Source: a bacterium (GTDB lineage Bacteria; SAR324; NAC60-12). Taken from it: DNA of 64,000 nt. Numbering within the stretch: the first letter of the stretch is position 1; every line of letters begins with the position of its first letter. Where the stretch lies: positions 544,001 to 608,000 of the forward strand of contig OZ242383.1 of NCBI GenBank assembly GCA_965209155.1, written 5' to 3'. Both the position numbers and the translations under genes were made by a program. Below, piece by piece: positions 16,610 through 48,782 of the stretch. Under the pieces are notes generated by a model that was not told the origin of the DNA, did not search any database, and saw nothing but the letters and a program-made list of their open reading frames with translations.

Positions 16610-16654
16610 CAACCGTCACCATTAACCAACGCTTCCTGATTTAAGCGATATTGG

Positions 16655-17533
16655 TTATTTTGAAGAGCGGGGATCGGAATCTTTCTCTTGGAGGAGAGCA
16701 CGCAGCCGTTCGACTTCCGCAAGCGCTTTTTCTTCTCTTGCCAAGGCAATTTTTTCTCTTGCCAAGGCGTTTTCTTTCAGTTGTCGCTCTTTTTCTTTCA
16801 GTTGTCGCTCTTTTTCTTTTTGCTGACGCTCTTGTTGGAAGCTTTTCAGGAGAAACGGTTGGTAGAGAGGATCCTCGATCAATGTTTCAAAGGCCACCTG
16901 TTTTTCTAAATCCTCCAGACGAAAGGCGAAACGATCCAAAACCCGGGAATGAATCACCTCAGGCTCTTTCTGCTTCATCCTCTCATAAACCCCTTGCTCA
17001 TTGAGGAAATAGAAGGCGGTGTGCTTGCGCAAACGGTCTAATATATAATATTCCGCCACCCCTGCTTTGGCGTATTCTTCTTTTTTGTGGACCGTATCCC
17101 GTTCTACCTCTGCGGGAGTCGAGTCGGATAAAAACTCAATACAGAGATCACAAACTCCCCTAAAAGAACGGTCCAGGGGTTTGGCCTCGACAGGATTGGA
17201 GTGGAGAATCACGGCCAGATCCGGTTTGCGAATACTCACCTTTTGCTTTCCCACCGCCAAACGAAAGCCCATTTCCAATACCATCATCCGTCCGATGGGA
17301 AAGACGGTCAAATACTCTTTTAATAAGTGGAAGAACCATTCATAGAGGGAGATGCTTAAAAAATCGGGCATAGGCTTTTCCTCCAAGAGTCCATTGTTCC
17401 ATTCATATGAACCATCCGGGTGTTCATAATACGTCTTCCAATACTCGGCTTCACTCGCCCTGAGCGGCTCCTTGGCAGAAGGAGGCAACCGTGTTGGAGA
17501 AGAGTGATTTTTGACGGATTCTAAAGAAGTCAT
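16655..17533 (-). CDS. Uma2-family (DUF820) endonuclease-fold protein with coiled-coil tail, copy 1
   Basis: RKPDLAV, IEFLS, KKEEYAKAGVAEYYILD; heptad-repeat tail; start uncertain. Confidence 0.85.
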   Translation of the reverse strand: MTSLESVKNHSSPTRLPPSAKEPLRASEAEYWKTYYEHPDGSYEWNNGLLEEKPMPDFLSISLYEWFFHLLKEYLTVFPIGRMMVLEMGFRLAVGKQKVSIRKPDLAVILHSNPVEAKPLDRSFRGVCDLCIEFLSDSTPAEVERDTVHKKEEYAKAGVAEYYILDRLRKHTAFYFLNEQGVYERMKQKEPEVIHSRVLDRFAFRLEDLEKQVAFETLIEDPLYQPFLLKSFQQERQQKEKERQLKEKERQLKENALAREKIALAREEKALAEVERLRALLQEKDSDPRSSK

Positions 17534-17854
17534 GATGCCCTCGATGAGAAGGAGTGGTGAAATTTGTCGTCTTTTCAAAAACATAACACATTGTGTGGAG
17601 GACAGCAATTTCTATGTTGATCGACTTTAAATAAATCGGACCCATTTTCACAATTATGTTATGTGATTGCTGTCCATTTTCAGCAGCGGTGACGTTGCTG
17701 GATTCTCTTTGATAAATAATTCTGTTGACTATTGATTACTATTTTATTACTGTTCCTTTTCAACACAGGTAACAATGCCCGATGAATCATGCGAAATCGA
17801 TGCGTCAAGCAGCATCATTGATTTCTATTTGATATCTAAAATGGCAGGAGGACG

Positions 17855-20800
17855 ATGAAAGGCAAAATCAGCAAGCATTCCGTCGAAAATCTGTCGTGCG
17901 AGAGAAAAGACCGCTTCCTGTGGGACACGGAGTTGCCGATGTTCGGCTGTAAAATAACCCCCAAGGGCAGACGGGTTTATCTCCTGCAATATCGCATCAA
18001 GGGACGCCTGAGGCGCTATACCATTGGCACGCATGGGATTTTGACCGCCAAAGAAGCCCGCCACATTGCCAGGAACCTGCTGCATGAGGTGGTCCTGGGT
18101 CGTGATCCGGCGGATACGAAGAATAAAAAAGGAGATCAAAACGATAAATTGTCTCCTGGACCTCCAAAAACGGTTGTGAACAACACGAAGTTGGTTTCCA
18201 GTGGGGAAAATGCAGAGATTCCGGGTTATTCACTGGAGGAGGTCATTTTTGAAAGTGGGCGGACCTGGCTTTGGCGCGGCAAGCGGCAAAGCGATGGGCT
18301 TTGGGTTCTGATCAAGGGAGCGGCTTCCTCTGAGCAGAGCGCGCAGGAGCTGGCGGAAATACGGCATGAGCATGAGATCACCCAGGCTCTTAAGATCGAT
18401 GGGGTCCTCAGGTCAGAGGAAGTGGTGCAATATGAAAACGGATCAGTCTTGATCCTGGAAAACACGGAAGGGCTTCCTTTAAGAAAGCTGATGGATGCCG
18501 CCCGGCTCGACCTGCTGGACTCGCTTAAGGTAGCGCTTTCACTGATCGGTATTCTGAAAGAAGTGCACCAGCAGGGCCTCCTGCATAAAATGATCAACCC
18601 ATTAAATATTTTTGTCGATCCGGGATCGGGAAACATCAAACTGAGCGGCTTCGGCCTGGCCACTCGGCTGCCCCGGGAAAATTTGACGACGTTGAGTCCC
18701 CAGCTTAGCGGGGAAACCCTGCCCTATATCTCCCCCGAGCAGACCGGGCGGATGAACCGGGTGCTCGATTATCGCAGTGATTTTTATTCTCTGGGCGCTA
18801 CCCTTTATGAACTTTTTACAGGGAGAGTACCTTTTGGGTCCCGGGAGACCATGGAAATCATCCACGCTCACATTGCCCGGCAGCCTGTACCCCTGGACCA
18901 GATGGCGCCGCAGGTGCCCAAACCCCTTTCTAATATGGTGATGAAACTGATGGCCAAGCGTGCCGAGGCGCGCTACCAGAGCCACTCGGGCCTTTCAGCT
19001 GATCTCCTGGCATGTCTGGATCAGCTCGAAAACCAGGGGAGCCTGTCCGACTTTCCCCTGGGCCGCCAGGACGTTCCCAAAGAACTGCAGATCGCCCCGG
19101 GGCTTTATGGCCGGGAGGATGAAATTACTGATCTGGAAGCCGCCCTGGAGCGAGTCAGCCAGGGAGCGACCGAGATGGTGCTGATCTCGGGAAGCGCCGG
19201 TGTCGGCAAAACCGCCCTGGTCGGTGAAATTCACCGGTCTATTGCCCAAAAAAACGGTTATCTCATCTCCGGCAAGTTTGACCAGCTCCGGCATAATATC
19301 CCTTACAGCGCTTTGATCCAGGCGCTGCGGGGACTGATCCGGGAGGTATCAGTCGAAGAGAAATCCGGAATGGAGCGTTGGAAAAGCAGGATACGGGCAG
19401 CGCTGGGCCCCAACGGACAACTGATGGCCCGGGTGATCCCGGAACTGGAACAGGTGATCGGCCCGCAACCCCCGCTGCCGGAAATGGGAGCGCTGGAGTC
19501 CCAGAACCGCTTCACTGCCGTTTTACTGGATTTCATCTCTGTTTTCTGTGAAAAAACCCATCCCCTGGTTATTTTTCTGGACGACTTGCAGTGGGTGGAC
19601 GCCGATACCCTCAAGCTGGTGGAACGCATCGCTCAGCATCCCGAGAGGAAACCTCTGCTTTTCCTGGGAGCCTATCGCGAAAACGAGGTGGAGGCCGATC
19701 ATCCGTTGTCGATCAGTTGTGAGGTGATCAAAAAATCTGGCCAGCCGCTGCAAACGATCCTCTTAAAACCTCTGAACTCAGAGAACATCTTACAACTGCT
19801 CGTCCATACCTGCCACTGCCGTCCTGAGGAGGCCAAACAGCTGGCCGAGGTCCTGGTGCGCAAAACCGGCGGCAATCCCTTCTTTGTGAGCCAGTTCTTG
19901 ACCGTACTCTCCGAGAAGGAGCTGATCCGCTACTCCCCTGAGGAAAAACGATGGACCTGGGAGCTGGCTGCCATCGAATTCCTGGCGGTGACCGAGAATG
20001 TGGTGGATTTGCTGGTTGACCGGCTCCACCGGTTTTCCTTTGAAACCAGGCGACTCTTGAGCCTGGCGGCCTGCATCGGCAATATTTTTGATCTGGAATC
20101 GTTGGAACTGATCAGCGGAGCCGGAAGCGGGGAGCTCTATGAGAACCTGTTGCCGGCCCTGGAAACCGGGTTGATCCTCGGTTTTTCCCGGGCTCCGCAG
20201 CTGGATAATCCTCCCGCCGGAGCGAGCATGGAAGGCGGCAGCTACAGCTTCCTGCATGACCGGGTGCAGCAGGCTGCCTATGCCCTCATTGCCGAAAAGA
20301 AGAGAAAGCCGGTCCATCTTCAAATCGGTCAGACCCTGCTCAAGCAATACGTTCCCGGGAAAAGTGACGCTCTGCTTTTTGACATCGTCCACCATCTCAA
20401 CCTGGCCCGGAGGGTGAAGGATAAATGGAAAGACCGATTGAATCTGGCGGAACTCAACTTGGAAGCCGGTCGTCAGGCCAGAGCGGCTTCGGCTTTTGAA
20501 CAGGCCCTGGAATACTTTACCCTGGGCCTGGAGCTTTCAGGAGCCGCCGCCTGGAAACGGCAATACCCCCTGACCTTATCCCTGCATGAGGAAGCCACGG
20601 AGATGTCATGGCTCTGCGGCCGCTTCGAGTTGATGGAGAAGCTGGCGGGTGCCGTAAAAGACAACGCCCGAGAGGACCCGGACCTGGCCACTGTTTATCA
20701 ATGCCGGATCAAGAACTACACCACCCAGGGTGAATTAAAGAAGGCCCTGAAAACGGGCGAAGAAATTCTGGAGAAATTGGGGTGTAATCTGAATCGTCTG

Positions 20801-23800
20801 TCTCTCGACCAGTGGCAGCAGACCCTCGTTCAAATCAAATCCGGCCTGGCCGGTAAAAGCGTCGAAGACGTGATGCGCTTTGAGCCGCTCACCCAACCTG
20901 ATGCCGAGGTCCTGGTCCCTATCCTCTATGAACTCCATTTGGCCTATGGCCAGGCTGGGGTTACTTTGGATGACGGTCTTTGGCAGCCCATCGCTTCAAA
21001 ACGTATCTCTTTTCTGCTCAATCATTTTCATCCGAAACATTCACCCGAATCCTATGGTTTCCTTGGAAGTATATATTGCTTGTATATGCAGGATTTTGAA
21101 TTTGGTTATGAACTCGGTCGTCTGGGCATACAGCTCATGGAAGCGATTGATCTGAAGGAAATAAACTGTAGAGTTTCCAAGGGTTTCAACGGCTATGTCC
21201 GATTCTACGGGGAGCCGCTATCGGCGTCATTGGAGCCCTTGCTGGAAGCTCATAAGATGGGAATCGAGACGGGAGATTTCTTCAATGCCGGTCGTGCAGC
21301 CGTCGTAAGATGTCAGATTGCCTTTATGTGCGGGAAGGAGCTGAACTGGCTGAAAGGGGAATTGTCAACGTTGAAACTTGCTCTCAAGAAGATCGATTAT
21401 ATTATCGGGTCTCCCCAGCTCGAAATGCTGACGAAGGCGATCATGATTCTAATGGAGGAACCTGCGAGCCTGTCGACCGCCATCATGGATCAATACCATA
21501 GGGTGACGGGTGCAGAGTACCGATATGGTGACCAGAGCAGTTTTAATTACCATAAGCTGGTGCTGCAAACCCTGTTCGAAGAATACGAAGCAGCCCGTGA
21601 GACGGTTTTTGAATTGATCAGCCTGATGAAAACCTATAAGGATCCCCTTATTGATCCCCTGGCCAACTGCTACCAATCCCTCGCTCTCCTGGCGGTCTGC
21701 GGCCAGGTGCCTGACGGGGAAAAAGAGGAGATCCTCACCCAGGTTCATGACAATCAGGATATGTTGGAAAAATTGGCGCGCTGCGCACCGTCTAATTATT
21801 TGCATAAGTATCATCTGGTGGAAGCCGAACGGATGAGGGTTTTGGAGGGTCAAAGCGACGCGATCCTATCTCATTATGACCAGTCCATCGCTTTGGCCAG
21901 AGAGAGCGAATTTATCCACGAGGAAGCCCTGGCCAATGAACTGGCAGCCAGGTACTTGCTCAACCAGGGGCAAAATGACGCCGCCAGGTCTTACCTGCGC
22001 TCAGCAATGGAGAAGTACGAAGCCTGGGGGGCAAAACGGAAGGTCGCGCATCTGAAGTCTCGATATCCCGGGTTGATTGCCGATGATCACACTGAAACGG
22101 TGGCGTCTCCTTCGGCCAACCTGGATCTGGTGACGATGCTCAAAGCCTCGGAGGCCATCTCCAGTACCATCGAGTTGGAACCGCTGCTGGAGATCCTGCT
22201 CCGCATTCTCATGGAAAATGCCGGGGCCCAGACAGCAACCCTGATTCTGGAAACCGAAGGTCAGTCTCTCATTGCTGCCCGCGGGAGCACCGAGCAGGTC
22301 GAATGTTTTCTACCGCTTTCCCTGCCTGTGGAAAAGGCTGGATCCCTCTCCCTCTCGGTCATCTCTTGGGTGAAACAAACCCGGGAGCATCTGGTTTTAG
22401 ACAACGCCGCCCGGGAGGAACGGTTTGTCTATGATGATAATATTCAGAGGGAACGTCCTAAATCAATCCTGTGCGCACCGATCACTCACAAGTCATCTTT
22501 GAGCGGCATAATTTACCTGGAAAATAACCTGGTTGAGGGAGCCTTCACCTCCCGGCGATTCGAGGTGATCAAACACCTCACCTCCCAGATCGCCATTTCT
22601 CTGGAAAATGCCAGGCTTCACGAAAACCTCAAACGAACCGAAGCGGAATACCGGGGAATATTTGAAAATGCCACCGAAGGCATCTACCGGACGAGCCAGG
22701 ACGGCCGCTTTCTGAGCGCCAATCCAGCGATGGCCCGGTTATTCGGGTACTCTTCCCCGGATGAGCTGATGGCATCCATCACCGACGTCGGGCACCAGCT
22801 TTATGTGAATCCGGAGCGGCGTCATCAGTTCCTGGATCTCATCCGGCAACGACGCCCCGTTTCGGATTTTGAGGTAGAATTTTTCCGTAAAGACGGCAGC
22901 ACCTTCTGGGCTTCCCTGCACGCCCGCCCAGTCTATGATGAGACCGATGCCTTGCGCTTCATCGAAGGGATTATTTCCGACATAACGGAGCAGAAAAACC
23001 GGATGGAAGCCCTGAATGAAGAAAATGTCCGCCTGAAGGCCAACATTAAGGAACGTTATCGCTTCGGAAAGATCATCGGTAAAAGCCCCGTGATGCAGGA
23101 GATTTATGAATTGATCTTAAAGGCGGCGGCTAGCGATGCGGGTGTCATTGTATACGGTGAATCAGGCACCGGTAAAGAACTGGTGGCCGAAGCCATCCAT
23201 AAGATGAGTGATAGAAAAGAAAAACCCTTTGTGACCATCAACCTCGGTGCCGTTCCGGAAACCCTCTTGGAAAGCGAGTTTTTCGGCTACAAAAAAGGGG
23301 CCTTTACCGGAGCCAATGCGGATAAGCGCGGCCTGCTCCAACAGGCAGACAAAGGCACGCTTTTCCTGGATGAATTGGGTGAAATCGGCCCCAATCTGCA
23401 AGCTAAACTGCTGCGTGCTATTGAGGGCGGAGGGTTCACGCCAGTAGGCGGACTTGAAGCGGAAACCTCCGATTTTCGCGTCGTTGCCGCCACCAATAAA
23501 GATTTAAAACAACAGGTGAAAAAGGGATTGATGCGGGAGGATTTCCTCTACCGCATCCACATTATCCCTATTCACTTGCCGCCTCTCCGGGAACGTAAAG
23601 AGGATATCCCCCTTTTGATCGAGCATTTTATGCAAAACCACCCTTCCTCAAAGAACCTGCCCAAAATCACCCTCCGTGTCATGGAAGCTCTGACCTCCTA
23701 TGATTGGCCGGGAAACGTCAGGGAACTGATCAACACCCTGTATCGCTATGTCACTCTGGGAGAGGTTGATTTTCTGGGGGAACGGATAAATTCCAAAATC

Positions 23801-24004
23801 AGCGAAACTTCAAATTTCGGAGATACCATCAACCCCAGGAAAATGGCGCTGGATCAGGCCATCGCGGATAGTGAAAAAGCGGCGATTCTCAATGCTCTGA
23901 AAAATTTTGAGGGCCACAAGGTAAAAACCGCTGCCGCCCTGGGAATCTCCCGGGCCACCCTCTTCAACAAAATGAAAAAGTACGGAATTCGGACCAGCAC
24001 CTGA
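17855..24004 (+). CDS. 2049-aa multidomain sigma54-dependent activator: integrase arm-type DNA-binding domain, pseudokinase, STAND/AAA ATPase, helical repeats, GAF, PAS, sigma54 AAA+, Fis HTH
   Basis: LWDTELPMFG...YRIKG...TIGTHG..TAKEAR...GRDP; YISPEQTGRMN; GSAGVGKT / FLDDLQW; FLHDRVQQAAY; IYLENN; IFENATEGIY; GESGTGKE, GAFTGA, FLDE, WPGNVREL; ALGISRATLFNKM. Confidence 0.9.
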   Translation: MKGKISKHSVENLSCERKDRFLWDTELPMFGCKITPKGRRVYLLQYRIKGRLRRYTIGTHGILTAKEARHIARNLLHEVVLGRDPADTKNKKGDQNDKLSPGPPKTVVNNTKLVSSGENAEIPGYSLEEVIFESGRTWLWRGKRQSDGLWVLIKGAASSEQSAQELAEIRHEHEITQALKIDGVLRSEEVVQYENGSVLILENTEGLPLRKLMDAARLDLLDSLKVALSLIGILKEVHQQGLLHKMINPLNIFVDPGSGNIKLSGFGLATRLPRENLTTLSPQLSGETLPYISPEQTGRMNRVLDYRSDFYSLGATLYELFTGRVPFGSRETMEIIHAHIARQPVPLDQMAPQVPKPLSNMVMKLMAKRAEARYQSHSGLSADLLACLDQLENQGSLSDFPLGRQDVPKELQIAPGLYGREDEITDLEAALERVSQGATEMVLISGSAGVGKTALVGEIHRSIAQKNGYLISGKFDQLRHNIPYSALIQALRGLIREVSVEEKSGMERWKSRIRAALGPNGQLMARVIPELEQVIGPQPPLPEMGALESQNRFTAVLLDFISVFCEKTHPLVIFLDDLQWVDADTLKLVERIAQHPERKPLLFLGAYRENEVEADHPLSISCEVIKKSGQPLQTILLKPLNSENILQLLVHTCHCRPEEAKQLAEVLVRKTGGNPFFVSQFLTVLSEKELIRYSPEEKRWTWELAAIEFLAVTENVVDLLVDRLHRFSFETRRLLSLAACIGNIFDLESLELISGAGSGELYENLLPALETGLILGFSRAPQLDNPPAGASMEGGSYSFLHDRVQQAAYALIAEKKRKPVHLQIGQTLLKQYVPGKSDALLFDIVHHLNLARRVKDKWKDRLNLAELNLEAGRQARAASAFEQALEYFTLGLELSGAAAWKRQYPLTLSLHEEATEMSWLCGRFELMEKLAGAVKDNAREDPDLATVYQCRIKNYTTQGELKKALKTGEEILEKLGCNLNRLSLDQWQQTLVQIKSGLAGKSVEDVMRFEPLTQPDAEVLVPILYELHLAYGQAGVTLDDGLWQPIASKRISFLLNHFHPKHSPESYGFLGSIYCLYMQDFEFGYELGRLGIQLMEAIDLKEINCRVSKGFNGYVRFYGEPLSASLEPLLEAHKMGIETGDFFNAGRAAVVRCQIAFMCGKELNWLKGELSTLKLALKKIDYIIGSPQLEMLTKAIMILMEEPASLSTAIMDQYHRVTGAEYRYGDQSSFNYHKLVLQTLFEEYEAARETVFELISLMKTYKDPLIDPLANCYQSLALLAVCGQVPDGEKEEILTQVHDNQDMLEKLARCAPSNYLHKYHLVEAERMRVLEGQSDAILSHYDQSIALARESEFIHEEALANELAARYLLNQGQNDAARSYLRSAMEKYEAWGAKRKVAHLKSRYPGLIADDHTETVASPSANLDLVTMLKASEAISSTIELEPLLEILLRILMENAGAQTATLILETEGQSLIAARGSTEQVECFLPLSLPVEKAGSLSLSVISWVKQTREHLVLDNAAREERFVYDDNIQRERPKSILCAPITHKSSLSGIIYLENNLVEGAFTSRRFEVIKHLTSQIAISLENARLHENLKRTEAEYRGIFENATEGIYRTSQDGRFLSANPAMARLFGYSSPDELMASITDVGHQLYVNPERRHQFLDLIRQRRPVSDFEVEFFRKDGSTFWASLHARPVYDETDALRFIEGIISDITEQKNRMEALNEENVRLKANIKERYRFGKIIGKSPVMQEIYELILKAAASDAGVIVYGESGTGKELVAEAIHKMSDRKEKPFVTINLGAVPETLLESEFFGYKKGAFTGANADKRGLLQQADKGTLFLDELGEIGPNLQAKLLRAIEGGGFTPVGGLEAETSDFRVVAATNKDLKQQVKKGLMREDFLYRIHIIPIHLPPLRERKEDIPLLIEHFMQNHPSSKNLPKITLRVMEALTSYDWPGNVRELINTLYRYVTLGEVDFLGERINSKISETSNFGDTINPRKMALDQAIADSEKAAILNALKNFEGHKVKTAAALGISRATLFNKMKKYGIRTST

Positions 24005-24555: not shown

Positions 24556-24572
24556 TTGGCACACAGCTTGAA
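24556..24572 (+). promoter_or_regulatory. Sigma54 -24/-12-like promoter, module 1 (GA variant at -12)
   Basis: TTGGCACACAGCTTGAA (GG-N10-GA), 80 bp from the UAS-like palindrome and upstream of a co-oriented operon. Confidence 0.55.
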
Positions 24573-25064: not shown

Positions 25065-25161
25065 AGATAAATATGAAATCAATCGTATTTGGAGAAATTA
25101 TTATGAAAAAGATAAATATGAAATCAATCGTATTTGGAGAAATTATTATGAAAAAGATAAA
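25065..25161 (+). repeat. 45-bp tandem duplication of the RBS/start region
   Basis: AGATAAATATGAAATCAATCGTATTTGGAGAAATTATTATGAAAA present twice plus a partial third unit. Confidence 0.9.
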
Positions 25162-37787: not shown

Positions 37788-37850
37788 CATTGTGTTGCGG
37801 GTGATGGCAGCATTGGGGGTCTGTGGAGTGCTAAGAGTTCTCATGATGCC

Positions 37851-37937
37851 TGAGAATGGCGGAAGGTATCAACGATTTTATGAAATCCAATTTCAAGAAT
37901 AACTACCGTCGCCATAAAACAACGTTTCCTGAGTTAA
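37851..37937 (+). repeat. Duplicate of the MsbA-like gene 3' tail and downstream sequence (16558-16644)
   Basis: ENGGRYQRFYEIQFQE* repeated. Confidence 0.9.
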
Positions 37938-38018
37938 TGTAGGATTCATCGGCCTCGGCGCCATAAAATCCGGGGACAGTTACGAAAATAAATCACGAAA
38001 ACCAGACCCGATATTAGC

Positions 38019-38191
38019 AGGGATCGGAATCTTTCTCTTGGAGGAGAGCACGCAGCCGTTCGACTTCCGCAAGCGCTTTTTCTTTTTCTTCTCTTGCCAA
38101 GGCATTTTCTTTCAGTTTTCGCTCTTTTTCTTTTTGCTGACGCTCTTGTTGGAAGCATTTCAGGAGAAAGGTTTTGGTAGAGAGGATCCTC
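38019..38191 (-). pseudogene. 3' fragment of a third Uma2 copy
   Basis: Matches 16669-16876 with indels in the heptad-repeat tail. Confidence 0.85.
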
Positions 38192-38409
38192 AATTAATCT
38201 TTAATTTGATGCGCTGGGCGCGCCTTATACAGACTCCCCCTAGAAATTTGAAACAGGAATATCTTCCCTTGCATTTAATCAGAAACTTCGATATGGTTGG
38301 CATTAAATCAGTTGATTTTGGCAAGAATCCGATTATGCGTTAACTAAATACAGTGATTCAGAAAAAAGTATCCAAATTGTCATTCTACTATGAAATCATA
38401 TGTCAAGAT

Positions 38410-38630
38410 AGTTATGAAAAAAATTCTAACCAGTCTACTATTCGTGGTCCCAAAGGCCGACAAGTTACTTTTTCGAAGTCATTTTCATGAAAGGAGTTGG
38501 CATACTGAGCGACGATGATCGGAGTCAACAAGAATGACACCGCCATACTCCAGGAACTTCGATAATGAGGTGTTGAACTTTTTCAAATTTCTTGGTTGTT
38601 GCTTTCTAGTAGATGAATCTCAAGGCTCTG
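38410..38630 (-). ncRNA. Candidate bridge/seek RNA of the IS1111-type element
   Basis: Two stem-closed loops containing matches to both target flanks (38531-38539, 38505-38509) and both element ends (38463-38469, 38435-38441); transcript ends unknown. Confidence 0.7.
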
Positions 38631-38637
38631 TTTTTGT

Positions 38638-39702
38638 TTAAACCACTTGGAGCACAGGAGGTTGATAAGGTGTTTGATCGAGGATTAACCTCCTAGCCAA
38701 AATCACCAGTTTACGAGCGATGGCCACAATGGCCCGTTTGCCTCCGATGCGGCAAGCCAAGCGTTGATATTTGGTTTTAAAATAAGGATCTTTACGCACC
38801 AGAGTCCAAGCCGCTTCCACCAACATTCCACGCAGATCGGCTTTGCCGGAACGAGTAATATGGCCCATGCGAATCTGATCAGAACTGGAAAACTGAGAAG
38901 GGGTTAAGCCCACATAAGCGGCGATTTGATCACTTTGAGCAAAACGCGTGAGATCTTCCAATTCTAATAAAAAGGTCATCGCTGTGAGCAAACCCACTCC
39001 GGGGATGGATCTTAAAAACTGAACGTTGAGTTGGTGTTGAGGGCTCTTGGCCAGTTGTCGAATGGCTTGAGTCAGACGAAGAATTTGCTCTTGGAGAAAA
39101 TGGAATTCTTCCAGAAGCATTTGCATACTCAAACCAAAGCGAGAGTCGCTTTGAGCCAAGTTTGTTAATTCCAATAAAAAACTTTGAGTCCAAGAACCTT
39201 GGTCGCTGGAGAGCTTTTGTCCATGAAAACTTAACTCGGCTTTGATGCGATTTTGAACACGAACTCGATTGCCCATGAGTTGACGACGATGGCGAATGAG
39301 TTTGCGTTGCTGCAAATTAGCTTCACTCGGAACATAAACACTTTTGAGCAAATCTCTGGAAAGATAAAAGGCTAATTTCTTGCTGTCTTTGCGATCGGTT
39401 TTTACTCGATTACCTGACTCTTGAGGAATCAAACTGGGAGGGGTGACCAAACAATCCACCCCCCAATGGCTCAGATGACGAGAGAGCCAGTAGCCACAAT
39501 AACCGGCTTCATAGACCACTTTCATCTCCAATGATTTGAAAGGATTCAAAAGTTTTTTTAAGGCCGACCAACTCGCTGGAATGGATTGACTGCTCAACTC
39601 GCAATCAAAGCTCCGAATGGTGACATGAAAGGTTTTTTTATGCACGTCGATTCCTATATAAATGGTTTGGCCTAATAATGATTCAATGTTAATCTTTTTC
39701 AT
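38638..39702 (-). CDS. IS110-family recombinase/transposase
   Basis: IGIDVHK, VYEAG, KTDRKDS (DEDD); SIPGVG; GLTPSQFSS; G.ITRSG. Confidence 0.95.
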   Translation of the reverse strand: MKKINIESLLGQTIYIGIDVHKKTFHVTIRSFDCELSSQSIPASWSALKKLLNPFKSLEMKVVYEAGYCGYWLSRHLSHWGVDCLVTPPSLIPQESGNRVKTDRKDSKKLAFYLSRDLLKSVYVPSEANLQQRKLIRHRRQLMGNRVRVQNRIKAELSFHGQKLSSDQGSWTQSFLLELTNLAQSDSRFGLSMQMLLEEFHFLQEQILRLTQAIRQLAKSPQHQLNVQFLRSIPGVGLLTAMTFLLELEDLTRFAQSDQIAAYVGLTPSQFSSSDQIRMGHITRSGKADLRGMLVEAAWTLVRKDPYFKTKYQRLACRIGGKRAIVAIARKLVILARRLILDQTPYQPPVLQVV

Positions 39703-39953
39703 AGCAGTCTCCTAAAAGATGGTTGTTAGTTTTTGCTGAAACTATTTAATATCACAACCATCGGAGACTGTCTGATTTACATAGTAACTGAGGGGGACGC
39801 CTAGTCATGTAGGCGAAGAATCTCAATGATATCAAGGAGAACTTTCGTAAGGGGGCTGCCTAAGCCTCAGGATGACAAATCAAAAGTATTAATTTGATCA
39901 CTTTATTCTGATTAGCTGTCCTAAGTATTCACGATTATCTCAGAGGAGTCCCC

Positions 39954-42900
39954 ATGGAAATGCCATATACTCAGCAGACTTCCTTGGATCAGCATAGGAA
40001 ACGGTTTTTGACCGATGATCGCTGTCACCAGCATCTTTTTACGGTTCGCTGGCCCCAGGGGTTTGTCTGTCCCGCCTGCGGTCATCATGAGTATTACGAG
40101 GTATCGCTGCGCAAGCTGTTTCAATGCAAACAATGTCATTCCCAAACTTCTGCGACGGCGGGCACGATCATGCACCGGACCCGGACTCCGCTGCGTTATT
40201 GGTTTTGGGGGATTTATTATGTGGCGGCATGCAATGGCGAGACGACGGCTCAACAACTATCAGAAAAAATCGGATTGAATTACTATTCCGCCCGGAGAAT
40301 GCTGGGAAAAATCCATGAAATCGAAAAGGACCAGGGGTTCCTGGGGGATCTGCTGAAAAGCTTCAAAATGCCTGAACCGTCCAAGGAAGAACTCTCTATT
40401 GGACCGGGAATGGAAACGCAATCCAGGCCAATAAAAGGGCCGTATCCACTAAGAGAGCCAACGATTCCAGACAGAAAAAATCCGGAGATTCTGGGTTATT
40501 CGCTGGAGGAGGTCATTTTTGAAAGTGGACGGACCTGGTTCAGGCGCGGCAGGCGGCAAAGGGACGGGCTTTCGGTCCTGATCAAGGGACCAGCTTCCTC
40601 TGAGCAGAGTGCCCAGGAACTGGCGGAAATGCGGCACGAGCATGAGATCACTCAGGCTCTTAGGATCGATGGGGTTCTCAGGGCAGAGGAACTGGTGCAT
40701 TGTGAGAACGGATGGGCGTTGATCCTGGAAAACACCGATTCGCTCCCTTTAAGAAAGCTGATGGATGCCGCCCGGCTCGACCTGCTGGACTCGCTGAAGA
40801 TAGCAGTTTCACTGATCGATATTCTGAAAGAAGTGCACCAGCAGGGCATCCTGCATAAAATGATCAACCCGTTCAATATTTTTGTCGATCCGGCATCGGG
40901 GACGGTCAAACTGAGCGGCTTCGGCCTGGCCACCCGGTTGCCTGAGAAAAATTTGACGACGTTGAGTCCTCAGCTGACCGGGGAAACCCTGCCCTATATC
41001 TCCCCCGAGCAGACCGGCCGGATGAACCGGCCCCTCGATTATCGCAGTGATTTTTATTCCCTGGGCGTCACCCTCTATGAGCTTTTCAGCGGAAGAGTGC
41101 CTTTCCACTCCCGGGAGGCCATGGAAATCATCCACGCTCACATTGCCCGGCAGCCCCTGTCCCCTGACGAGATTGAACCGCAAGTACCCAGAGTCCTTTC
41201 TAATATGGTGATGAAACTGCTGGCCAAGCGTGCCGAGGCGCGCTACCAGAGTCACTCGGGTCTGGCATCCGATCTCCTGGCATGTGTGGATCAGCTCGAA
41301 AACCAGGGGAGCCTGTCCGACTTTCCTCTGGGCCGCCATGATATGCCTGAAGAACTGCAGATCGCCCCGGGCTTTATGGCCGGGAGGATGAAATCACCGC
41401 CCTGGAGGCTGCCCTGGAACGAGTCAGCCAGGGAGCGACCGAGATGGTGCTGGTCTCGGGAAGCGCCGGTGTCGGTAAAACCGCCCTGGTCGGTGAAATT
41501 CACCGGTCCATTGCCCAAAAAAACGGCTTTTTCATCTCCGGCAAGTTTGACCAGCTCCGGCACAATATCCCCTACAGCGCCCTGATCCAGGCGCTGCGGG
41601 GACTCATCCGGGAGATGTCGGTTGCAAACAAACCCGGAATGGAGCGTTGGAAAAACAGGATACGGGCTGCCCTGGAACCCAACGGACAACTGGTGACCCG
41701 GGTGATCCCGGAACTGGAACAGATGATCGGCCCGCAACCCCCGCTGTCGGAAATGGGAGCGCTGGAGGCCCGGAACCGTTTCACTGCCGTTTTACTGGAG
41801 TTCATCGACCTTTTCTGTGAAAAGACCCATCCCCTGGTTATTTTTCTGGACGACCTGCAGTGGGTGGACGCCGATACCCTCAAGCTGGTGGAACGGATCG
41901 CTCAGGATCCGGAGAGGAAACCTCTGCTTTTCCTGGGGGCCTATCGCGACAACGAGGTGGAGGTCGATCATCGGCTGATGATCAGTTGTGAGGTGATCAA
42001 AAAAACAGGTCAGCCTGTGCAAACAATCCCCTTAAAGCCCCTCAACCCGGATGACATCTCACAACTGCTCGTCCATACCTGCCACTGCCGTCCTGAGGAT
42101 GCCAAACCGCTGGCCGAGGTTCTGGTGCGCAAAACCGGCGGCAATCCCTTCTTTGTGAGCCAGTTCTTGAACGTACTCTCCGAAAAGGAGCTGATCGGTT
42201 ACTCCCCCGAGGAAAAACGATGGACCTGGGATCTGGCTGCCATCGAATTCCTGGCGGTGACCGAAAATGTGGTGGATTTGCTGGTTGACCGGCTCCATCG
42301 ATTTTCCTCTGAAACCAGGAAACTCTTAAGCCTGGCGGCCTGCATCGGCAATACCTTTGACCTGGAATCGTTGGAACTGATCAGCGGAGCCGGAGGCAGA
42401 GAGATCGATGAGAACCTGTTGCCGGCCCTTGAAAATGGGTTGATTCTCGGTTTTTCCCAAGCCCCGCAGCTGGATAATCCTCTGGACGGAGCGAGCGCGG
42501 AGAGCGGCAGCTACAAATTCCTGCATGACCGGGTGCAGCAGGCTGCCTATGCCCTCATTGCCCAAAAGGAGAAACAGACGGTCCATCTTCAAATCGGTCA
42601 GACCCTGCTCAAGCAATACGCTCCAGAGAAAGGTGTAGATCTGCTTTTTGACATCGTCCACCATCTCAACCTGGCCCGGAGGGTGAAGGATAAATGGAAA
42701 GAACGATTGCATCTGGCAGAACTCAACTTGAAAGCTGGTCGTCAGGCCAGAGCGGCTTCGGCTTTTGAACAGGCTCTGGAATACTTTACCCTGGGCCTGG
42801 ATCTCTTAGGAGCCGCCGCCTGGAAACGGCATTACCCCCTGGCCTTATCCCTGCATGAAGCCGCCACGGAGATGTCATCGCTCTGCGGCCGCTTCGAGTT

Positions 42901-45900
42901 GATGGAGGAGCTGGCGGGTGCTGTAAAAGACAACGCCCGAGAAGACCCGGACCTGGCCAATGTTTATCGATGCCGGATCCAGGCGTACACAACCCGAGGT
43001 GAATTAAAAAAGGCACAGGAAACGGGCGCGGAGATTCTGGAGAAATTGGGGTATCAACTGAGCCGTCTGTCTCTCGACCAGTGGCAGCAGACCCTCGTTC
43101 AAATCAAACCCAGCCTGGCCGGTAAAAGCGTCGCAGACGTGATGCGCTTTGAGCCGCTCACCCAAACGGATGCCGAGGTCCTTGTCCCTATCCTGTATGA
43201 ACTCCATTTACCATATGACCAGGCTGGGGCTACTTTGGATGACGGTCTTTGGCAACCCATCGCTGCCAAACGCATCTCTTTGCTGCTGAATCATTTTCAT
43301 CCGCAATATTCACCCGAATTCTATATTCACCTTGGATATATATATTGCGGGTTTGTGCAGGATTTTGAATTTGGTTATGAACTCGGTCGTCTGAGCATAC
43401 AGATCATGGAAGCGCTTGATCTGAAGGAAATAAACTGTAGAGTTTCCGGGGGTTTCAATGGTGGGATCCGGTTCTATGGGGAGCCGCTATCGGCGTCATT
43501 GGATCCCTTGCTGGAAACTCATAAGATGGGAATCGAAACGGGAGATTTCGTCAATGCCGGTATTAGCGCTGTCGCAAGGTGTCGAATAGCGTTTATGTGC
43601 GGGAAAGAGCTGAATTGGCTGAAAGGGGAATTGTCGACGTTGAAGCTTGCTCTCAAGAAGATTGATTATATTCTCGGGTCTCCCCAAGTCGAAATGCTGA
43701 TGAAGGCGGTCATGATTCTAATGGATGAACCTTCGAGCCTGTCGAACGGCATCATGGATCAATACGACAGGGTGACAAGTACGGAGTACTCATATTATGA
43801 ACATTGCAGTTTTAATTACCAGAAGCTGGTACTGCAAACCCTGTTCGAAGAATACGAAGCAGCCCGTGAGACGGTTTTTGAAATGATCAACCTGATGAAA
43901 ACCTACAAGGATTCCCTTGTTGATCCCCTGGCCAACTGCTACCTGTCTTTCGCTCTCCTGGCGGTTTGCAACCAGGGGAGCGAGGGGGAAAAGGAGGAAA
44001 TCCTCACCCAGGTTGATGACAATCAGGAGACGTTGGAGAAACTGGCGCGCTGCGCACCGCCCAATTATTTGCATAAATACCACCTGGTGGAAGCCGAGCG
44101 GATGAGGGTTTTGGAGGGTCAAAGCGACGCGATCCTGTCCCATTATGACCAGGCCATCGCTTTGGCCAGAGAGAGTGAATTTATCCACGAGGAAGCCCTG
44201 GCCAATGAACTGGCAGCCAGGTACTTGCTCAACCAGGGGCAGAACGACGCCGCCGGCTCTTACCTGCGCTCAGCAATGGAAAAATACGAAACCTGGGGGG
44301 CAAAACGGAAGGTCGCGCACCTAAAGTCTCGATATCCCGGGCTGATTGCCGATGATCGTGCTGAAGCGGCGTCTCCTTCGGCCAACCTGGATCTGGGGAC
44401 GATGCTCAAAGCCTCGGAGGCCATCTCCAGTACCCTCGAGTTGGAACCGCTGCTGGAGATTCTGCTCCGCATTCTCATGGAAAATGCCGGGGCCCAGACA
44501 GCAACCCTGATTCTGGAAACCGAAGGTCAGTCTCTTATCGCTGCCCGTGGGAGTGCCGAGCAGGTCGAATATTTCCTGCCGCTTTCCCTGCCTGTGGAAA
44601 AGGCCCAATCCCTCTCCCTGTCGGTCATCTCCTGGGTAAAACAAACCCGGGAACACCTGGTTTTGGACAATGCCGCCCGCGAGGAACGGTTTGCCGAGGA
44701 TGATCATATCCAGAGGGAGCGCCCCAAATCCATCCTGTGCGCGCCGATCACTCATCAGTCCGCCTTGAGCGGAATCATTTACCTGGAAAATAACCTGGTT
44801 GAGGGAGCCTTCACCTCCCGGCGATTCGAGGTGATCAAGCACCTTAGCTCCCAGATCGCCATTTCCCTGGAAAATGCCAGGCTTCACGAAAACCTCAAAA
44901 AGGCGCTGGACGAGTCGAAAGCGAGCGAAACCTCCCTGCATGAAGAAAATATCCGTCTGAAGGCCAACATCAAGGAGCGTTATCGGTTCGGAAAGATCAT
45001 CGGCAAAAGCCCCGTGATGCAGGAGATTTGTGAATTAATCTTAAAGGCGGCGGCTAGCGATGCGGGTGTCATTGTCTATGGTGAATCAGGGACCGGTAAA
45101 GAATTGGTGGCTGAAGCCATCCATAAGATGAGTGATAGAAAAGAAAAAGCCTTTGTTCCTGTCAACGCCGGCGGCGTTGCAGAAACCCTCTTGGAAAGTG
45201 AGTTTTTCGGCTACAAAAAAGGGGCCTTTACCGGAGCCAACGCGGATAAGCGCGGCCTGCTCCAATCGGCAGACAAAGGCACGCTTTTCCTGGATGAATT
45301 GGGTGAAATCGGCCCCAATCTGCAAGCCAAACTGCTGCGCGCTATTGAGGGTGGAGGGTTCACGCCAGTAGGCGGACTTGAAGCGGAAACCTCCGATTTT
45401 CGCGTCATTGCCGCCACCAATAAAGATTTAAAAGAACAGGTGAAAAAGGGATTGATGCGGGAGGATTTCCTCTACCGCATCCACATTATCCCTCTTCACT
45501 TGCCGCCTCTCCGGGAACGTAAAGAGGATATCCCCCTGTTGATCGAGCATTTTATGCAAAACTACCCCCCCTCAAAGAACCTGCCCACAATCACCGTCGC
45601 TGTCATGGAAGCTCTGACTTCCTATGATTGGCCGGGCAATGTGAGGGAACTCCAAAATACGTTGCACCGCTACGTTACCTTGAAGAGGCTGGATTTTCTG
45701 GGAGCCCCTTTAAGTGCGCCGGCCCCTTCGCCGGAGATGAAATTTGAACCGATCCGGCCAAATGAAGAGTTGCTCCGAGATGTGGTGGCGCATTTCGAAA
45801 GGGAATATATCCTGAAGCAATTGGAAAGGTACCATTGGAACCGCTCCAAAGTTGCTTCTAAGCTTGGCATTGACCGAAGGACACTTTTTAAAAAGATGAG

Positions 45901-45931
45901 GAGTTATGGGGTGTTTAAGCCCCAAAATTAG
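39954..45931 (+). pseudogene. Second giant sigma54 activator: IS1595 Zn-ribbon/HTH, pseudokinase, STAND ATPase, GAF, sigma54 AAA+, HTH; split by a 1-bp deletion near 41370
   Basis: Colinear paralog of 17855-24004 without the PAS domain. CCCCGGG (41365-41371) versus CCCCGGGG (19095-19102); restoring one G gives a single 1992-aa frame. Confidence 0.85.
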
Positions 45932-46409
45932 ATGTCTCTTCTTTTCCAAGTATCCAGTTTTCATATTGGAATTGAGCAGTAATTTTAGCGAGTTGTGGAT
46001 AAATTTTGTCTGCACTTATAAGAATAGCGTTTTGAGCGATGGCGGTACTTGCAAGCATCAGATCTATATTATGCCTTTTCATATTTTTTTGTTTTGCCTC
46101 ATCTTCCCCTTGAAGCCCCCAATGGTCACGTAGCCCATTCTTCAAATCTCCAAATAATTCTGCTCCCATTAATGGAACCGCAAGGATTATAAAATCAGAT
46201 TGGGCCAATTGTGTCTGGTCTCGTAGCTTTGACACCTTATCATCAGGAGCATTAGCCCTTCCGTATTCTAGCTCATATAGAGTAAGAACAGAGATATAGA
46301 CTTCATCATCATCACTCAAAGCCATTATCTTTGAATTAATATCTTCATAATGCTCATCAGCTTCATTATAAAAACTAGAAACAGTTTCTGAATCGAGCAA
46401 GTATTTCAT
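45915..46409 (-). CDS. PIN-domain (VapC-like) toxin
   Basis: MKYLLDS, ISVLTLYELEYG, IDLMLASTA, LISAD. Confidence 0.85.
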   Translation of the reverse strand: MKYLLDSETVSSFYNEADEHYEDINSKIMALSDDDEVYISVLTLYELEYGRANAPDDKVSKLRDQTQLAQSDFIILAVPLMGAELFGDLKNGLRDHWGLQGEDEAKQKNMKRHNIDLMLASTAIAQNAILISADKIYPQLAKITAQFQYENWILGKEETSNFGA

Positions 46410-46413
46410 CAAA

Positions 46414-46668
46414 TTATTCTTGATCGTGTTTAAACTGAAAATTTTCTCGGAAATCCTTTCGATGTTGACGATCTGTTTCGGTGTAATTTCCTAGACTAAT
46501 AGGATTTTTTTTATTTCTTGCTACAATTTTTGCCCATTTGGAAGGTTCTGTGCTTGAAGCCTGCTTACCTGCTGGTTGAACTCCCAAAAGTTGTTCAAGC
46601 TCCTCTAATGGCATAGATTCAAGTTTACTTGCCAATTCTGGAGTCAGGTCATTTCGATTTACCTGCAT
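46414..46668 (-). CDS. Putative antitoxin
   Basis: Small ORF immediately upstream of the PIN gene; position-based call. Confidence 0.6.
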   Translation of the reverse strand: MQVNRNDLTPELASKLESMPLEELEQLLGVQPAGKQASSTEPSKWAKIVARNKKNPISLGNYTETDRQHRKDFRENFQFKHDQE

Positions 46669-46760
46669 ATTGCCTTTTGCGATTGGTGATGTTGCCATAA
46701 AATTTGAGGGCATACTTGCGGCAATTATACACGTTTCTCTAAATGGAAGCAAATAAAGTA

Positions 46761-47244: not shown

Positions 47245-47264
47245 ATGGGGTCATTTGACCCCAT
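47245..47264. promoter_or_regulatory. Candidate enhancer (UAS) of module 2
   Basis: Perfect inverted repeat ATGGGGTCA-TT-TGACCCCAT; related TGGGG-N8-CCCCA at 45907-45924. Confidence 0.6.
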
Positions 47265-47350
47265 TTCGCGATCTTTTCAAAAGGGAATTATATACAAAGT
47301 TAACCACGGATTCACACACTTGACATCCCAACGTAAAGAGTAATCACGGC

Positions 47351-47509
47351 CTACTCTTTACTTTCTTCCTTCTGCATAAATTTCCATTGATCAGAACGCC
47401 GGGGCGGGGATTTTAAAAACACAGTTATGATCTCGTCTGCCGTTGCGTTAATCTTTTCCGGCATCGGCTTGGCGGGTCTTCCTACTTTTTTCTTCTCTTT
47501 TGTTTTCAT
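47351..47509 (-). CDS. Small passenger ORF of the IS1595 element
   Basis: RBS AGGAG; MKTKEKKKVGRPAKP...; lies inside the TIRs. Confidence 0.55.
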   Translation of the reverse strand: MKTKEKKKVGRPAKPMPEKINATADEIITVFLKSPPRRSDQWKFMQKEESKE

Positions 47510-47584
47510 TTTAAATCTCCTGATATATTGTTGACATTCCTTCACAATCAAGTAGCTAATCTGATCATGCAGGAATGCAAATAT

Positions 47585-48517
47585 TCAAGCTATCAGATTT
47601 TTATACTTAAGCCGTTTTCCTTCCATGCCTTTGGCCATTGATTCGATTTGTGCCAGGGTATCAAGCTCTCGCTGATTTTGCCTACCAGCAAATTCCTTAA
47701 CATAGCGATCCAAATGCTTGGCACTCATTTTGTGATATGTCCCTTTGTGTCCCCTTTTGAGCATACTCCAGAAGGAATCAATACCAGCAGTATGGACATC
47801 TCCTCTCACGTATTCATCGTGGCTATGCCGGACAGATTCATGATTAGGAAGCCCCTTATAAACGGTAGCTTCGTCTGTATAAATCATGGAATTTTGTTTT
47901 ACATATTCCTGGATCATCTTCTCAATAACCGGCTTCTTTGTATCTTCCGTTGCGGTGGCTACCACTTGTCCGGTCTCTCGATCCTTAATACCTACAACTG
48001 GGGATTTGCCAACCGTACCCCGTCCCTCTTTCTTCTTTTTAGACTCATGTTTCAGAGATTCCTTACCCCCTACATAAGTCTCGTCCATTTCAACCGGACC
48101 ATTAAAAAGAGGTTTGTTATTATTCCAGCATTCCCGGATTCTATGATTGACAAACCATGCCGTTTTTTGAGTAAATCCCAATTCCCGGTATAGCTTCATA
48201 CTGGCAACCCCTTTGATATTCGTGGCCATCAGATAGAAAGCGAAAGCCCACTTCCGGTAACCAATTTTAGAAGCTTCCATAGCCGTTCCGGTCTTCACTG
48301 AAAAAAACTTCCTACAATCTTTACAACGAAACGGCATCGGATTTTTAGAATTTTCATACTTTATAATTCGCTCGCTTTCACAATGTGCACATCGTATCCC
48401 ATCAGGCCATCGCTTATCAATGAACATTTTTTCAGCCGTCTTGTCATCTGGGAACATGTCCATCAGTTCCAAAACCGTGATGCCTTTTCTGTGATTTTTT
48501 CCGGGTGCTTCTGCCAT
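47585..48517 (-). CDS. IS1595-family transposase
   Basis: RWPDGIRCAHC...FRCKDC; VEMDETYVGG; IYTDE; YHKMSAKHL.RYV.EF. Confidence 0.95.
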   Translation of the reverse strand: MAEAPGKNHRKGITVLELMDMFPDDKTAEKMFIDKRWPDGIRCAHCESERIIKYENSKNPMPFRCKDCRKFFSVKTGTAMEASKIGYRKWAFAFYLMATNIKGVASMKLYRELGFTQKTAWFVNHRIRECWNNNKPLFNGPVEMDETYVGGKESLKHESKKKKEGRGTVGKSPVVGIKDRETGQVVATATEDTKKPVIEKMIQEYVKQNSMIYTDEATVYKGLPNHESVRHSHDEYVRGDVHTAGIDSFWSMLKRGHKGTYHKMSAKHLDRYVKEFAGRQNQRELDTLAQIESMAKGMEGKRLKYKNLIA

Positions 48518-48765
48518 TTTTCAACTCCATGAAAAGTTAATAATTTTAGAAGTATATTAACCAATAAATCACAGTCTGTCAACAAAAAAATGCGTTTTTA
48601 TTCATTTTTGTTTATTATTTTTGGACTGGGATTAGGCGAGGCGTAGCGCCCGGCCTGCAAATCCATGGTTAACTTTGTATATAATTCCCTTTCAAAACCT
48701 GTCAACACTTCCTCTGTCATCAATTATTCTAATGAATTCAGTCACTTAGACTATCCCACGCCGTT

Positions 48766-48782
48766 TTGGCATCCTCCTTGCC
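48766..48782 (+). promoter_or_regulatory. Sigma54 -24/-12 promoter, module 2
   Basis: TTGGCATCCTCCTTGCC fits TGGCA-N6-TTGC (GG-N10-GC). Confidence 0.75.

Follow-up and report, generated by a model that had tools for sequence, protein, structure and literature searches.

InsA of IS1 represses the IS1 promoter (PMC12428005), IntS of ICEMlSymR7A negatively autoregulates (PMC11963761), and the binding sites of IS607-family TnpA are four 9-bp direct repeats in helical phase (PMC6188088). The activators described here share features with all three systems. As in InsA, one class of them has kept the N-terminal, DNA-binding half of a DDE transposase but not its catalytic domain, with a promoter that is presumed to overlap the element end (PMC12428005); unlike InsA, this half derives from IS1595, has become a permanent part of a host activator and lies outside any IS, and its role as a repressor is putative. 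A second class has, like IntS, an arm-binding domain and repeated arm-like sites near its own promoter (PMC11963761), with negative autoregulation belonging to IntS and presumed here; unlike IntS, it keeps the ~90-residue arm domain alone, the core-binding and catalytic domains being gone. The third class resembles IS607 TnpA in having an N-terminal MerR-like plus a resolvase-like domain and ~10-bp phased direct repeats upstream (PMC6188088), and differs from it in that the catalytic motif is altered or the domain deleted, TnpB is absent, and the protein is fused in frame to a kinase-like domain.

The proteins that bear these mobile-element heads are themselves composite. They share with enhancer-binding proteins of the NtrC/NifA type a GAFTGA-containing AAA+ domain, a C-terminal Fis HTH, GAF/PAS domains and -24/-12 promoters (PMC12316311), but they are ~2000 aa long, have a pseudokinase-STAND-TPR core, and carry a second DNA-binding domain at the N-terminus. 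The same kinase-STAND(AAA_16)-helical-GAF core, at ~40% identity, is found in Ser/Thr kinase-STAND-GAF proteins, which differ in having the kinase at their N-terminus, in most cases with the catalytic Asp intact, in lacking heads, and in ending in histidine-kinase, phosphatase or cyclase outputs. We take these relatives to be HstK-like. A STAND ATPase with Walker A and B motifs followed by helical repeats, the latter weakly matched here, is also the arrangement of MalT-type regulators. Judged by their domain content, the activators are neither insertion sequences, nor integrases, nor active kinases. Transcription factors of animals and plants are known to have gained transposase DNA-binding domains by capture, a recognised source of innovation, and Cosby et al. 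in 2021 reportedly described vertebrate host-transposase fusion transcription factors that arose by recurrent capture of this kind. In both cases an in-frame mobile-element domain sits on a host regulator, under purifying selection and in more than one species. Unlike the vertebrate fusions, those described here are bacterial, accommodate three enzyme classes in one slot, appear to have captured the promoter and presumed sites too, and have as host partner a sigma54 activator that itself possesses an HTH for target binding. Neither the family nor comparable fusions to bacterial activators were found described in the full texts searched, which lay largely outside subscription journals.

The window, the whole stretch of 64,000 nucleotides that was analysed, contains two of these genes. 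Activator 1 (17855–24004, forward strand) is intact and encodes 2049 aa, comprising an arm domain (aa 1–91; Arm-DNA-bind_3 of Pfam at aa 18–91, E 3 x 10−10), a linker, pseudokinase, STAND, TPR-like, GAF, PAS and sigma54 AAA+ domains, and a Fis HTH of the YGIR tail class. Its promoter (17725–17836, forward strand) has a -35 box TTGACT at 17725 and two repeat pairs, one of 11 bp in the spacer and the other in the leader (17818–17836), and a candidate sigma54 -24/-12 promoter (24557–24571, forward strand) lies before the SBP_bac_1 ABC operon that runs from 25073 onward. Two stretches of its helical region, at aa ~1020–1070 and 1170–1220, are the most variable among 21 paralogs (dN/dS 0.44–0.48) and constitute a candidate ligand-specificity site.

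The first ORF of activator 2 (39954–41585, forward strand, 543 aa) holds in one frame a Zn_ribbon_IS1595 match at aa 20–64 (E 2 x 10−16, above cut-off) and a Pkinase match at aa 199–437, and DDE_Tnp_IS1595 of Pfam was not found in it; the free IS1595 at 47585–48517 has both the Zn ribbon and the DDE domain. The NCBIfam model transpos_IS1595 matched activator 2 at aa 76–123 (the HTH) alone, with 20 bits against a cut-off of 75. In the AlphaFold model, aa ~11–140 are folded (block pLDDT 68–88), with helices 99–106 and 110–125 forming the HTH, and aa 141–199 are unstructured; a Foldseek comparison of the head model with structures gave no match at E ≤ 0.001. Ribbon, HTH, model and the missing DDE match all agree with the sequence-only reading that this N-terminus is the DNA-binding half of an IS1595 transposase, in frame with a kinase-like domain. 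That reading had also placed the start of homology to activator 1 at about 40480 versus 18210, and DNA similarity was indeed found from 40477 versus 18207, with protein similarity from residue 175 versus 118. On the forward strand, the head (39954–40328), a CxxC..CxxC Zn ribbon (aa 20–64) and an HTH (aa ~76–125) without DDE domain, is followed by a junction motif (GFLGDLLKSF), to which the N-termini of headless relatives are homologous, and by an unstructured linker (together 40329–40476; dN/dS 0.42–0.60). The kinase-like domain (40477–41370) is predicted to be inactive, with HKMINP for HKDINP and GFG for DFG, and the rest of the gene (41444–45931) encodes a STAND (AAA_16) ATPase, a helical, TPR-like region, GAF, a sigma54 AAA+ domain with GAFTGA and a Fis-type HTH of the GVFEP tail class, without PAS. 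The ATG at 39954 is preceded by the Shine-Dalgarno sequence AGAGGAG, and none is present at the Met codons 40368 and 40410 near the head-kinase junction.

Both genes belong to a family of paralogous pseudokinase-STAND-TPR-GAF-sigma54 activators of ~2000 aa, of which the 4.26-Mb source genome contains 28 kinase-domain copies, 80–89% identical to activator 1. An intact single ORF was found for 21 copies, and 7 are broken. All but one carry a mobile-element head (27/28), which is an integrase arm domain in 15, an IS1595 head in 10 and an IS607-type MerR head in 2; 25 of the 27 calls were made by Pfam, and two broken arm copies were assigned by tblastn. The IS607-type head matched transpos_IS607 of NCBIfam with 122 bits (cut-off 110), and the resolvase-like domain is retained in one of the two copies, with an altered catalytic motif (GYACVD for GY.RVSS). 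The queries used detected neither a free arm-type integrase nor an IS607 relative in the source genome. Throughout the 119 close homologues (proteins at E ≤ 10−100) the kinase is degenerate, with HKMINP in 114 and GFG in 112, and it is predicted to be inactive from the loss of both the catalytic-loop Asp and DFG; Walker A of the STAND (AAA_16) domain is present in all 119 and Walker B in 117, and the helical repeats that follow were matched weakly (TPR_CHK1 below cut-off). A sigma54 domain with AAA+, GAFTGA and Walker motifs occurs in 25 copies, which hold 25 of the 27 GAFTGA motifs of the genome, and the RpoN box was found once in the genome. Two lineages of this domain, with identities to activator 1 of about 90% and 65%, and the presence or absence of PAS assort among the paralogs of G000, the source genome. 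Contigs of relatives from RNA runs were short, contained linker and kinase only and may be of DNA origin, and runs X19 and X20, with small region shares of 0.07–0.09, were not counted as expression. Parts of the region occur in runs labelled sponge or marine metagenome, the organism itself being uncultured, and the records of relatives are labelled 'Deltaproteobacteria bacterium'.

Of the 119 close homologues, 108 have a complete kinase domain, and when their N-termini were tabulated, different mobile-element heads recurred, the pattern named beforehand as support for an interchangeable module: 46 were IS1595, 46 arm and 4 MerR (IS607-derived), and in 12 none was recognised. Seven of these 12 begin inside a known head or linker, and the other five form a headless group with 70–74% identity. 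All four cysteines are retained in 61 of 61 complete IS1595 heads, a set that includes fragments and near-copies. Among 64 genomes of the order, close homologues were found in G000 and the congeneric G001 alone, the latter with five copies, three with in-frame IS1595 heads and two with IS607 heads whose frame differs from that of the kinase. Of 11 metagenome loci, 8 lack a head altogether, as shown by an in-frame stop six codons upstream, and those with enough downstream DNA precede transporter operons; the top 150 matches to 50%-identity representatives include 136 that begin at the kinase. Because headless homologues exist, the head is, on this comparison, not required for such activators. 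Headless homologues had been named beforehand as counter-evidence to selection for the head, and this counter-evidence is present in part, in the numbers just given. No match was obtained when genome contigs were scanned with a headless protein or viral contigs with the IS1595-head alignment, and atlas searches returned generic kinases only.

IS1595 and arm heads also occur on activators that are 42–46% identical, and headed activators are found in lineages where a single copy was seen. Across the deep lineages the heads are better conserved than the kinase, with 68.5% versus 47% identity for the arm head of lineage P0273 and 69% versus 42% for the IS1595 HTH plus junction of P0306/P0426. These deep headed relatives retain HKDINP, and an IS1595-headed activator from another family (G075:C292) has the same junction motif. 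In a tree with 23 transposase-like homologues, a 100/100 branch separates the 10 fused IS1595 heads that were compared from these homologues, which is compatible with one old capture that was spread by duplication and recombination. The idea that activator 2 acquired its head independently therefore fails, as activators 1 and 2 belong to two genome-wide head classes and the fused IS1595 heads lie together on one side of that branch. Four separate IS1595 captures, corresponding to sub-types a–d, were also considered and are not needed given this branch, which gene conversion of the HTH could mimic. In G076, a transporter operon is preceded by a headless sigma54 activator, which branches as the sister of all headed genes (100/99; headed clade 80/82). 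Before the deep lineages were added, the base was open in two trees and one more was unresolved within the family. The marine headless form was rejected as direct ancestor since, with the deep lineages added, it nests among headed genes (100/100 for its own clade; 80/82 for all headed). As the G076 gene is sister and the marine headless group is nested inside, the heads are read as an old acquisition that one branch has since lost, the marine group being likelier to represent head loss than the ancestral state. The IS607 head and the arm class have a common linker, which suggests that the IS607 head replaced an arm domain.

Pooled pairwise dN/dS values, for which pairs are non-independent and gene conversion is present, were 0.28 for the arm domain (CI 0.18–0.41; 12 genes) versus 1.03 for its own linker. 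For the IS1595 class they were 0.07–0.19 in the HTH and 0.14–0.32 in the Zn ribbon, with 0.42–0.60 in the linker, and for the MerR head 0.10 (2 genes), with 0.20–0.32 for the kinase and 0.42–1.03 for linkers overall. By these ratios, the heads are under purifying selection. On the core tree the head label switches 10 times over 24 labelled rows (a raw count), the nearest neighbour varies along the core, and a block of 250 residues is 100% identical between an arm gene and an IS1595 gene; as far as these patterns can be read, heads are shuffled among cores, and the cores are mosaics as homologous recombination predicts. The recurring heads, purifying selection and head switching together support the earlier proposal of selection for an interchangeable N-terminal DNA-binding or expression module.

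The upstream sequence is specific to each head class and in many cases occurs as a tandem duplication. In comparisons of arm promoters between two sub-classes (56 pairs), identity was 0.85 at the -35 box and 0.73 and 0.81 in the repeat pairs, with 0.28–0.38 in three flanking blocks. The leader repeat pair, 36–37 bases before the start, was present in 15/15, and 22 of 29 genome-wide matches to the arm promoter motif lie upstream of family genes. Free integrases 45–48% identical to the arm head have a TTGAC -35 box at a similar distance from the ATG in 3/4 cases, and their leaders contain an 11-bp repeat pair with a best lag of 11 in 4/4 (shuffle p 0.04, 0.01, 0.19 and 1.0); the similarity of arm promoters to these leaders is modest, 14–18 of 22 versus shuffle maxima of 14–16. 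Upstream of the MerR (IS607) heads, 10-bp phased repeats extend into the -35 box, and 4 of 4 genome matches are located upstream of the two MerR genes. Such periodicity is clear in one of three plasmid IS607 leaders, and an exact scan of genome contigs for IS607-type repeats gave 9 stretches, with a head downstream at the G001 locus alone.

The IS1595 class has the motif CATT(A/T)AATC(A/C) after the -35 box and again further downstream, a loose version of which has 118 matches in the genome, 101 of them away from family genes. A matrix built from 19 free IS1595 ends was significant upstream of the G075 gene (p = 0.002) and of sub-type d (p = 0.018), with 0.15–0.85 in seven controls, and not significant for sub-types a, b and c (p 0.42, 0.75 and 0.48), sub-type a being the one that concerns activator 2. 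An earlier free-end matrix had reached p < 0.05 in 3 of 14 IS1595-type promoters, one of them inside a REP-like repeat, and in 2 of 15 arm promoters. A matrix from fused sites, with two training sites, is circular for sub-types b and d, the usable results being the held-out G075 score and the free-end matrix. What resembles the element upstream of IS1595 heads is a motif alone, like the inner part of its left end (G075, sub-type d). The combination of repeats over the own promoter with a non-catalytic DNA-binding domain is clear in the arm and MerR classes and partial in the IS1595 class. An orphan copy of an IS1595-class promoter without a head gene is located at G000:C1:927645–927736.

Directly downstream of 24 of the 25 sigma54-domain activators lies an ABC-transporter gene, encoding a binding protein in 21 cases by Pfam and in 2 by N-terminal likeness, and a permease in 1. 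The C-terminal HTH falls into four types, and the -24/-12 sequence typical of the type was found downstream in 23/25. As HTH type and downstream -24/-12 type match, target recognition needs no head and is, judged from this match, already accounted for by the C-terminal HTH and the downstream sigma54 promoter. Head motifs were absent within 3 kb downstream in 24/25 loci. Head and tail classes assort randomly (14 combinations versus 14.2 expected), and a head-by-tail unique address code was rejected because distinct combinations are not in excess. At many transporter genes the RBS and first codons are tandemly duplicated, as at the binding-protein starts at 25073 and 48991 of the window and at L016, L018 and L040.

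In the scheme that we propose, each member would act as a one-component sigma54 activator for the nutrient-uptake operon that directly follows its gene. Its C-terminal HTH would bind an enhancer just 3' of that gene, and its AAA+ domain would open the transporter operon's sigma54 promoter. Judged by the type of its domains, the STAND/TPR/GAF core is presumably a ligand-controlled switch. The head would be the 5' end of a mobile element captured whole, with sigma70 promoter, binding sites, RBS and DNA-binding domain, the catalytic domain being lost or dead. Three unrelated donors, a tyrosine integrase, an IS1595 DDE transposase and an IS607 serine transposase, would have entered one slot, and recombination at the linker-kinase border would then have exchanged promoter-plus-head cassettes among paralogs. 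The head may bind the repeats overlapping its own -35/-10 and leader and repress its own activator gene and, with a motif common to the class, members would repress each other, capping the total pool of 2000-residue activators. We lean, with slightly more confidence than doubt, towards heads as captured promoter-operator-autorepressor cassettes that exert negative autoregulation and cross-repression within a class, because the sites cover promoter and leader, the DNA-binding domain lacks catalysis, and InsA and IntS provide a precedent. Conservation of the motifs could instead stem from the needs of RNA polymerase or from gene-conversion linkage.

Autorepression would be compatible with an additional tethering in cis, in which the head, translated first, would bind its own upstream repeats co-translationally and keep the activator at its own locus, so that the neighbouring operon is switched on and not the others with this enhancer type. 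With 25 activators and four tail/enhancer types, cross-talk is a real problem, and 24 of the 25 are positioned directly upstream of an ABC-transporter gene. The DNA-binding domain is N-terminal in all three donors, and the transposase of IS911 is ~200-fold better in cis, presumably through co-translational binding (PMC5009743). Nevertheless, we regard tethering as unlikely, since the random head/tail assortment provides no two-part address, motifs are common to up to 15 loci, and headed activators occur where a single copy was seen. The two activities could be combined in locus-aware factors, in which the head represses its own promoter and also tethers the activator to its locus as it is being translated, so that ~25 paralogs with four enhancer types would each run their own operon, with cassettes from three recombinase classes being interchangeable; this combination is speculative and equally doubtful.

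STAND and sigma54 AAA+ domains work as oligomers, and binding to tandem repeats would therefore depend on the activation state, as expected if the head bound its repeats non-repressively, in positive feedback or in looping to the downstream enhancer, or if it controlled oligomerisation through protein contacts. The resolvase-like dimerisation domain retained in one of the two IS607-type copies points in the same direction. The sites, however, overlap the -35/spacer and leader, the usual position for a repressor, and one protein-contact role for three unrelated folds is unlikely, so that we consider these functions rather improbable. A non-autonomous mobile unit, which the head would help a recombinase to move, could explain the 28 dispersed copies, many beside toxin-antitoxin genes and IS elements, and the donor-type sites that were kept; it is very unlikely given that the queries used turned up neither a free arm-type integrase nor an IS607 relative in the genome, the resident IS1595 shares 23% identity with the head and has different ends, the cores are mosaic as homologous recombination would give, and the catalytic parts are absent or altered (GYACVD for GY.RVSS). 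That element ends supplied only a promoter and start codon, the protein head being a neutral passenger, would fit the existence of headless relatives, the abundance of IS insertions in the genome and the neutral evolution of one arm-class linker, but it is largely refuted by the selection data, with head dN/dS at or below that of the kinase, heads outlasting the core over deep divergence and repeats conserved beyond -35/-10, and is highly improbable.

Here transposase-domain capture is seen in bacteria, and thrice in one slot (DDE transposase, tyrosine integrase and serine transposase), with presumed binding sites that came along with the heads and were kept over deep time. The family offers naturally replicated material for testing whether regulators acquire an additional DNA-binding domain for dosage control or for cis-preference, and it bears on how large paralog families avoid cross-talk. 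It also yields predicted binding sites for the poorly studied Zn/HTH domain of IS1595 and three small, probably orthogonal, putative autorepression modules.

The value of the finding rests with the family rather than with activator 2, which is probably a weakened or dead copy, because of a frameshift, an IS110 in its leader and a free IS1595 that splits its candidate enhancer from the candidate sigma54 promoter. The one-base frameshift relative to activator 1, near 41368 (41366–41372, forward strand), is either a real lesion or an assembly error and divides the gene into ORFs of 543 and 1495 aa. Contigs carrying the extra base exist, but may be paralogs, and the shifted tail had no counterpart among stored proteins. 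An IS1595-class promoter was read by eye at 38269–38311 (forward strand), with a -35 box TTGCAT (38269–38274), a -10 box TATGGT (38292–38297) and the sequence GCATT(T/A)AATCAG twice (38271–38282 and 38300–38311); a consensus promoter scan gave no call there. It is displaced from the start codon by an IS110 (38378–39793, reverse strand), identical or near-identical to three other copies, and the leader also holds a short dispersed REP-like repeat (39811–39879) with two other copies at 81–84%. A promoter 1.6 kb off, behind an IS110, is found both in activator 2 and in one intact paralog. In some contigs a promoter of the displaced type is joined straight to the ATG region, in paralog-like alleles. 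Downstream, a palindromic enhancer (UAS) candidate of the GVFEP tail class (47247–47262, forward strand) and a candidate sigma54 -24/-12 promoter (48767–48781, forward strand), located before an SBP_bac_5 ABC-transporter operon (48991 onward), are separated by the intact free IS1595 (47275–48697, reverse strand), which has 38-bp terminal inverted repeats and is 23% identical to the head.

Several minor observations concern the surroundings of these genes. The near-identical IS110 copies are those at 38378–39793 of the window and at G000:C1:1888536, 2301221 and 1967136, at least three of which adjoin REP-like sequence, and an IS110-free allele is visible in one sequencing run. The 3' end of an msbA-like gene and the end of a Uma2-type gene, located upstream of activator 1 (16554–16887), recur upstream of activator 2 (37847–37937 and 38016–38202). 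At L057 (1–267), unrelated GC-rich sequence abuts the start of an activator, probably in a chimeric contig. A different IS1595 Zn-ribbon fusion was seen in P0042, where PF02945 takes the place of the DDE domain. Finally, toxin-antitoxin modules of the PIN, RelE and ParE types and small cassettes often adjoin the activators, as at 45915–46752 of the window and at L024, L029, L030, L031, L033 and L043.
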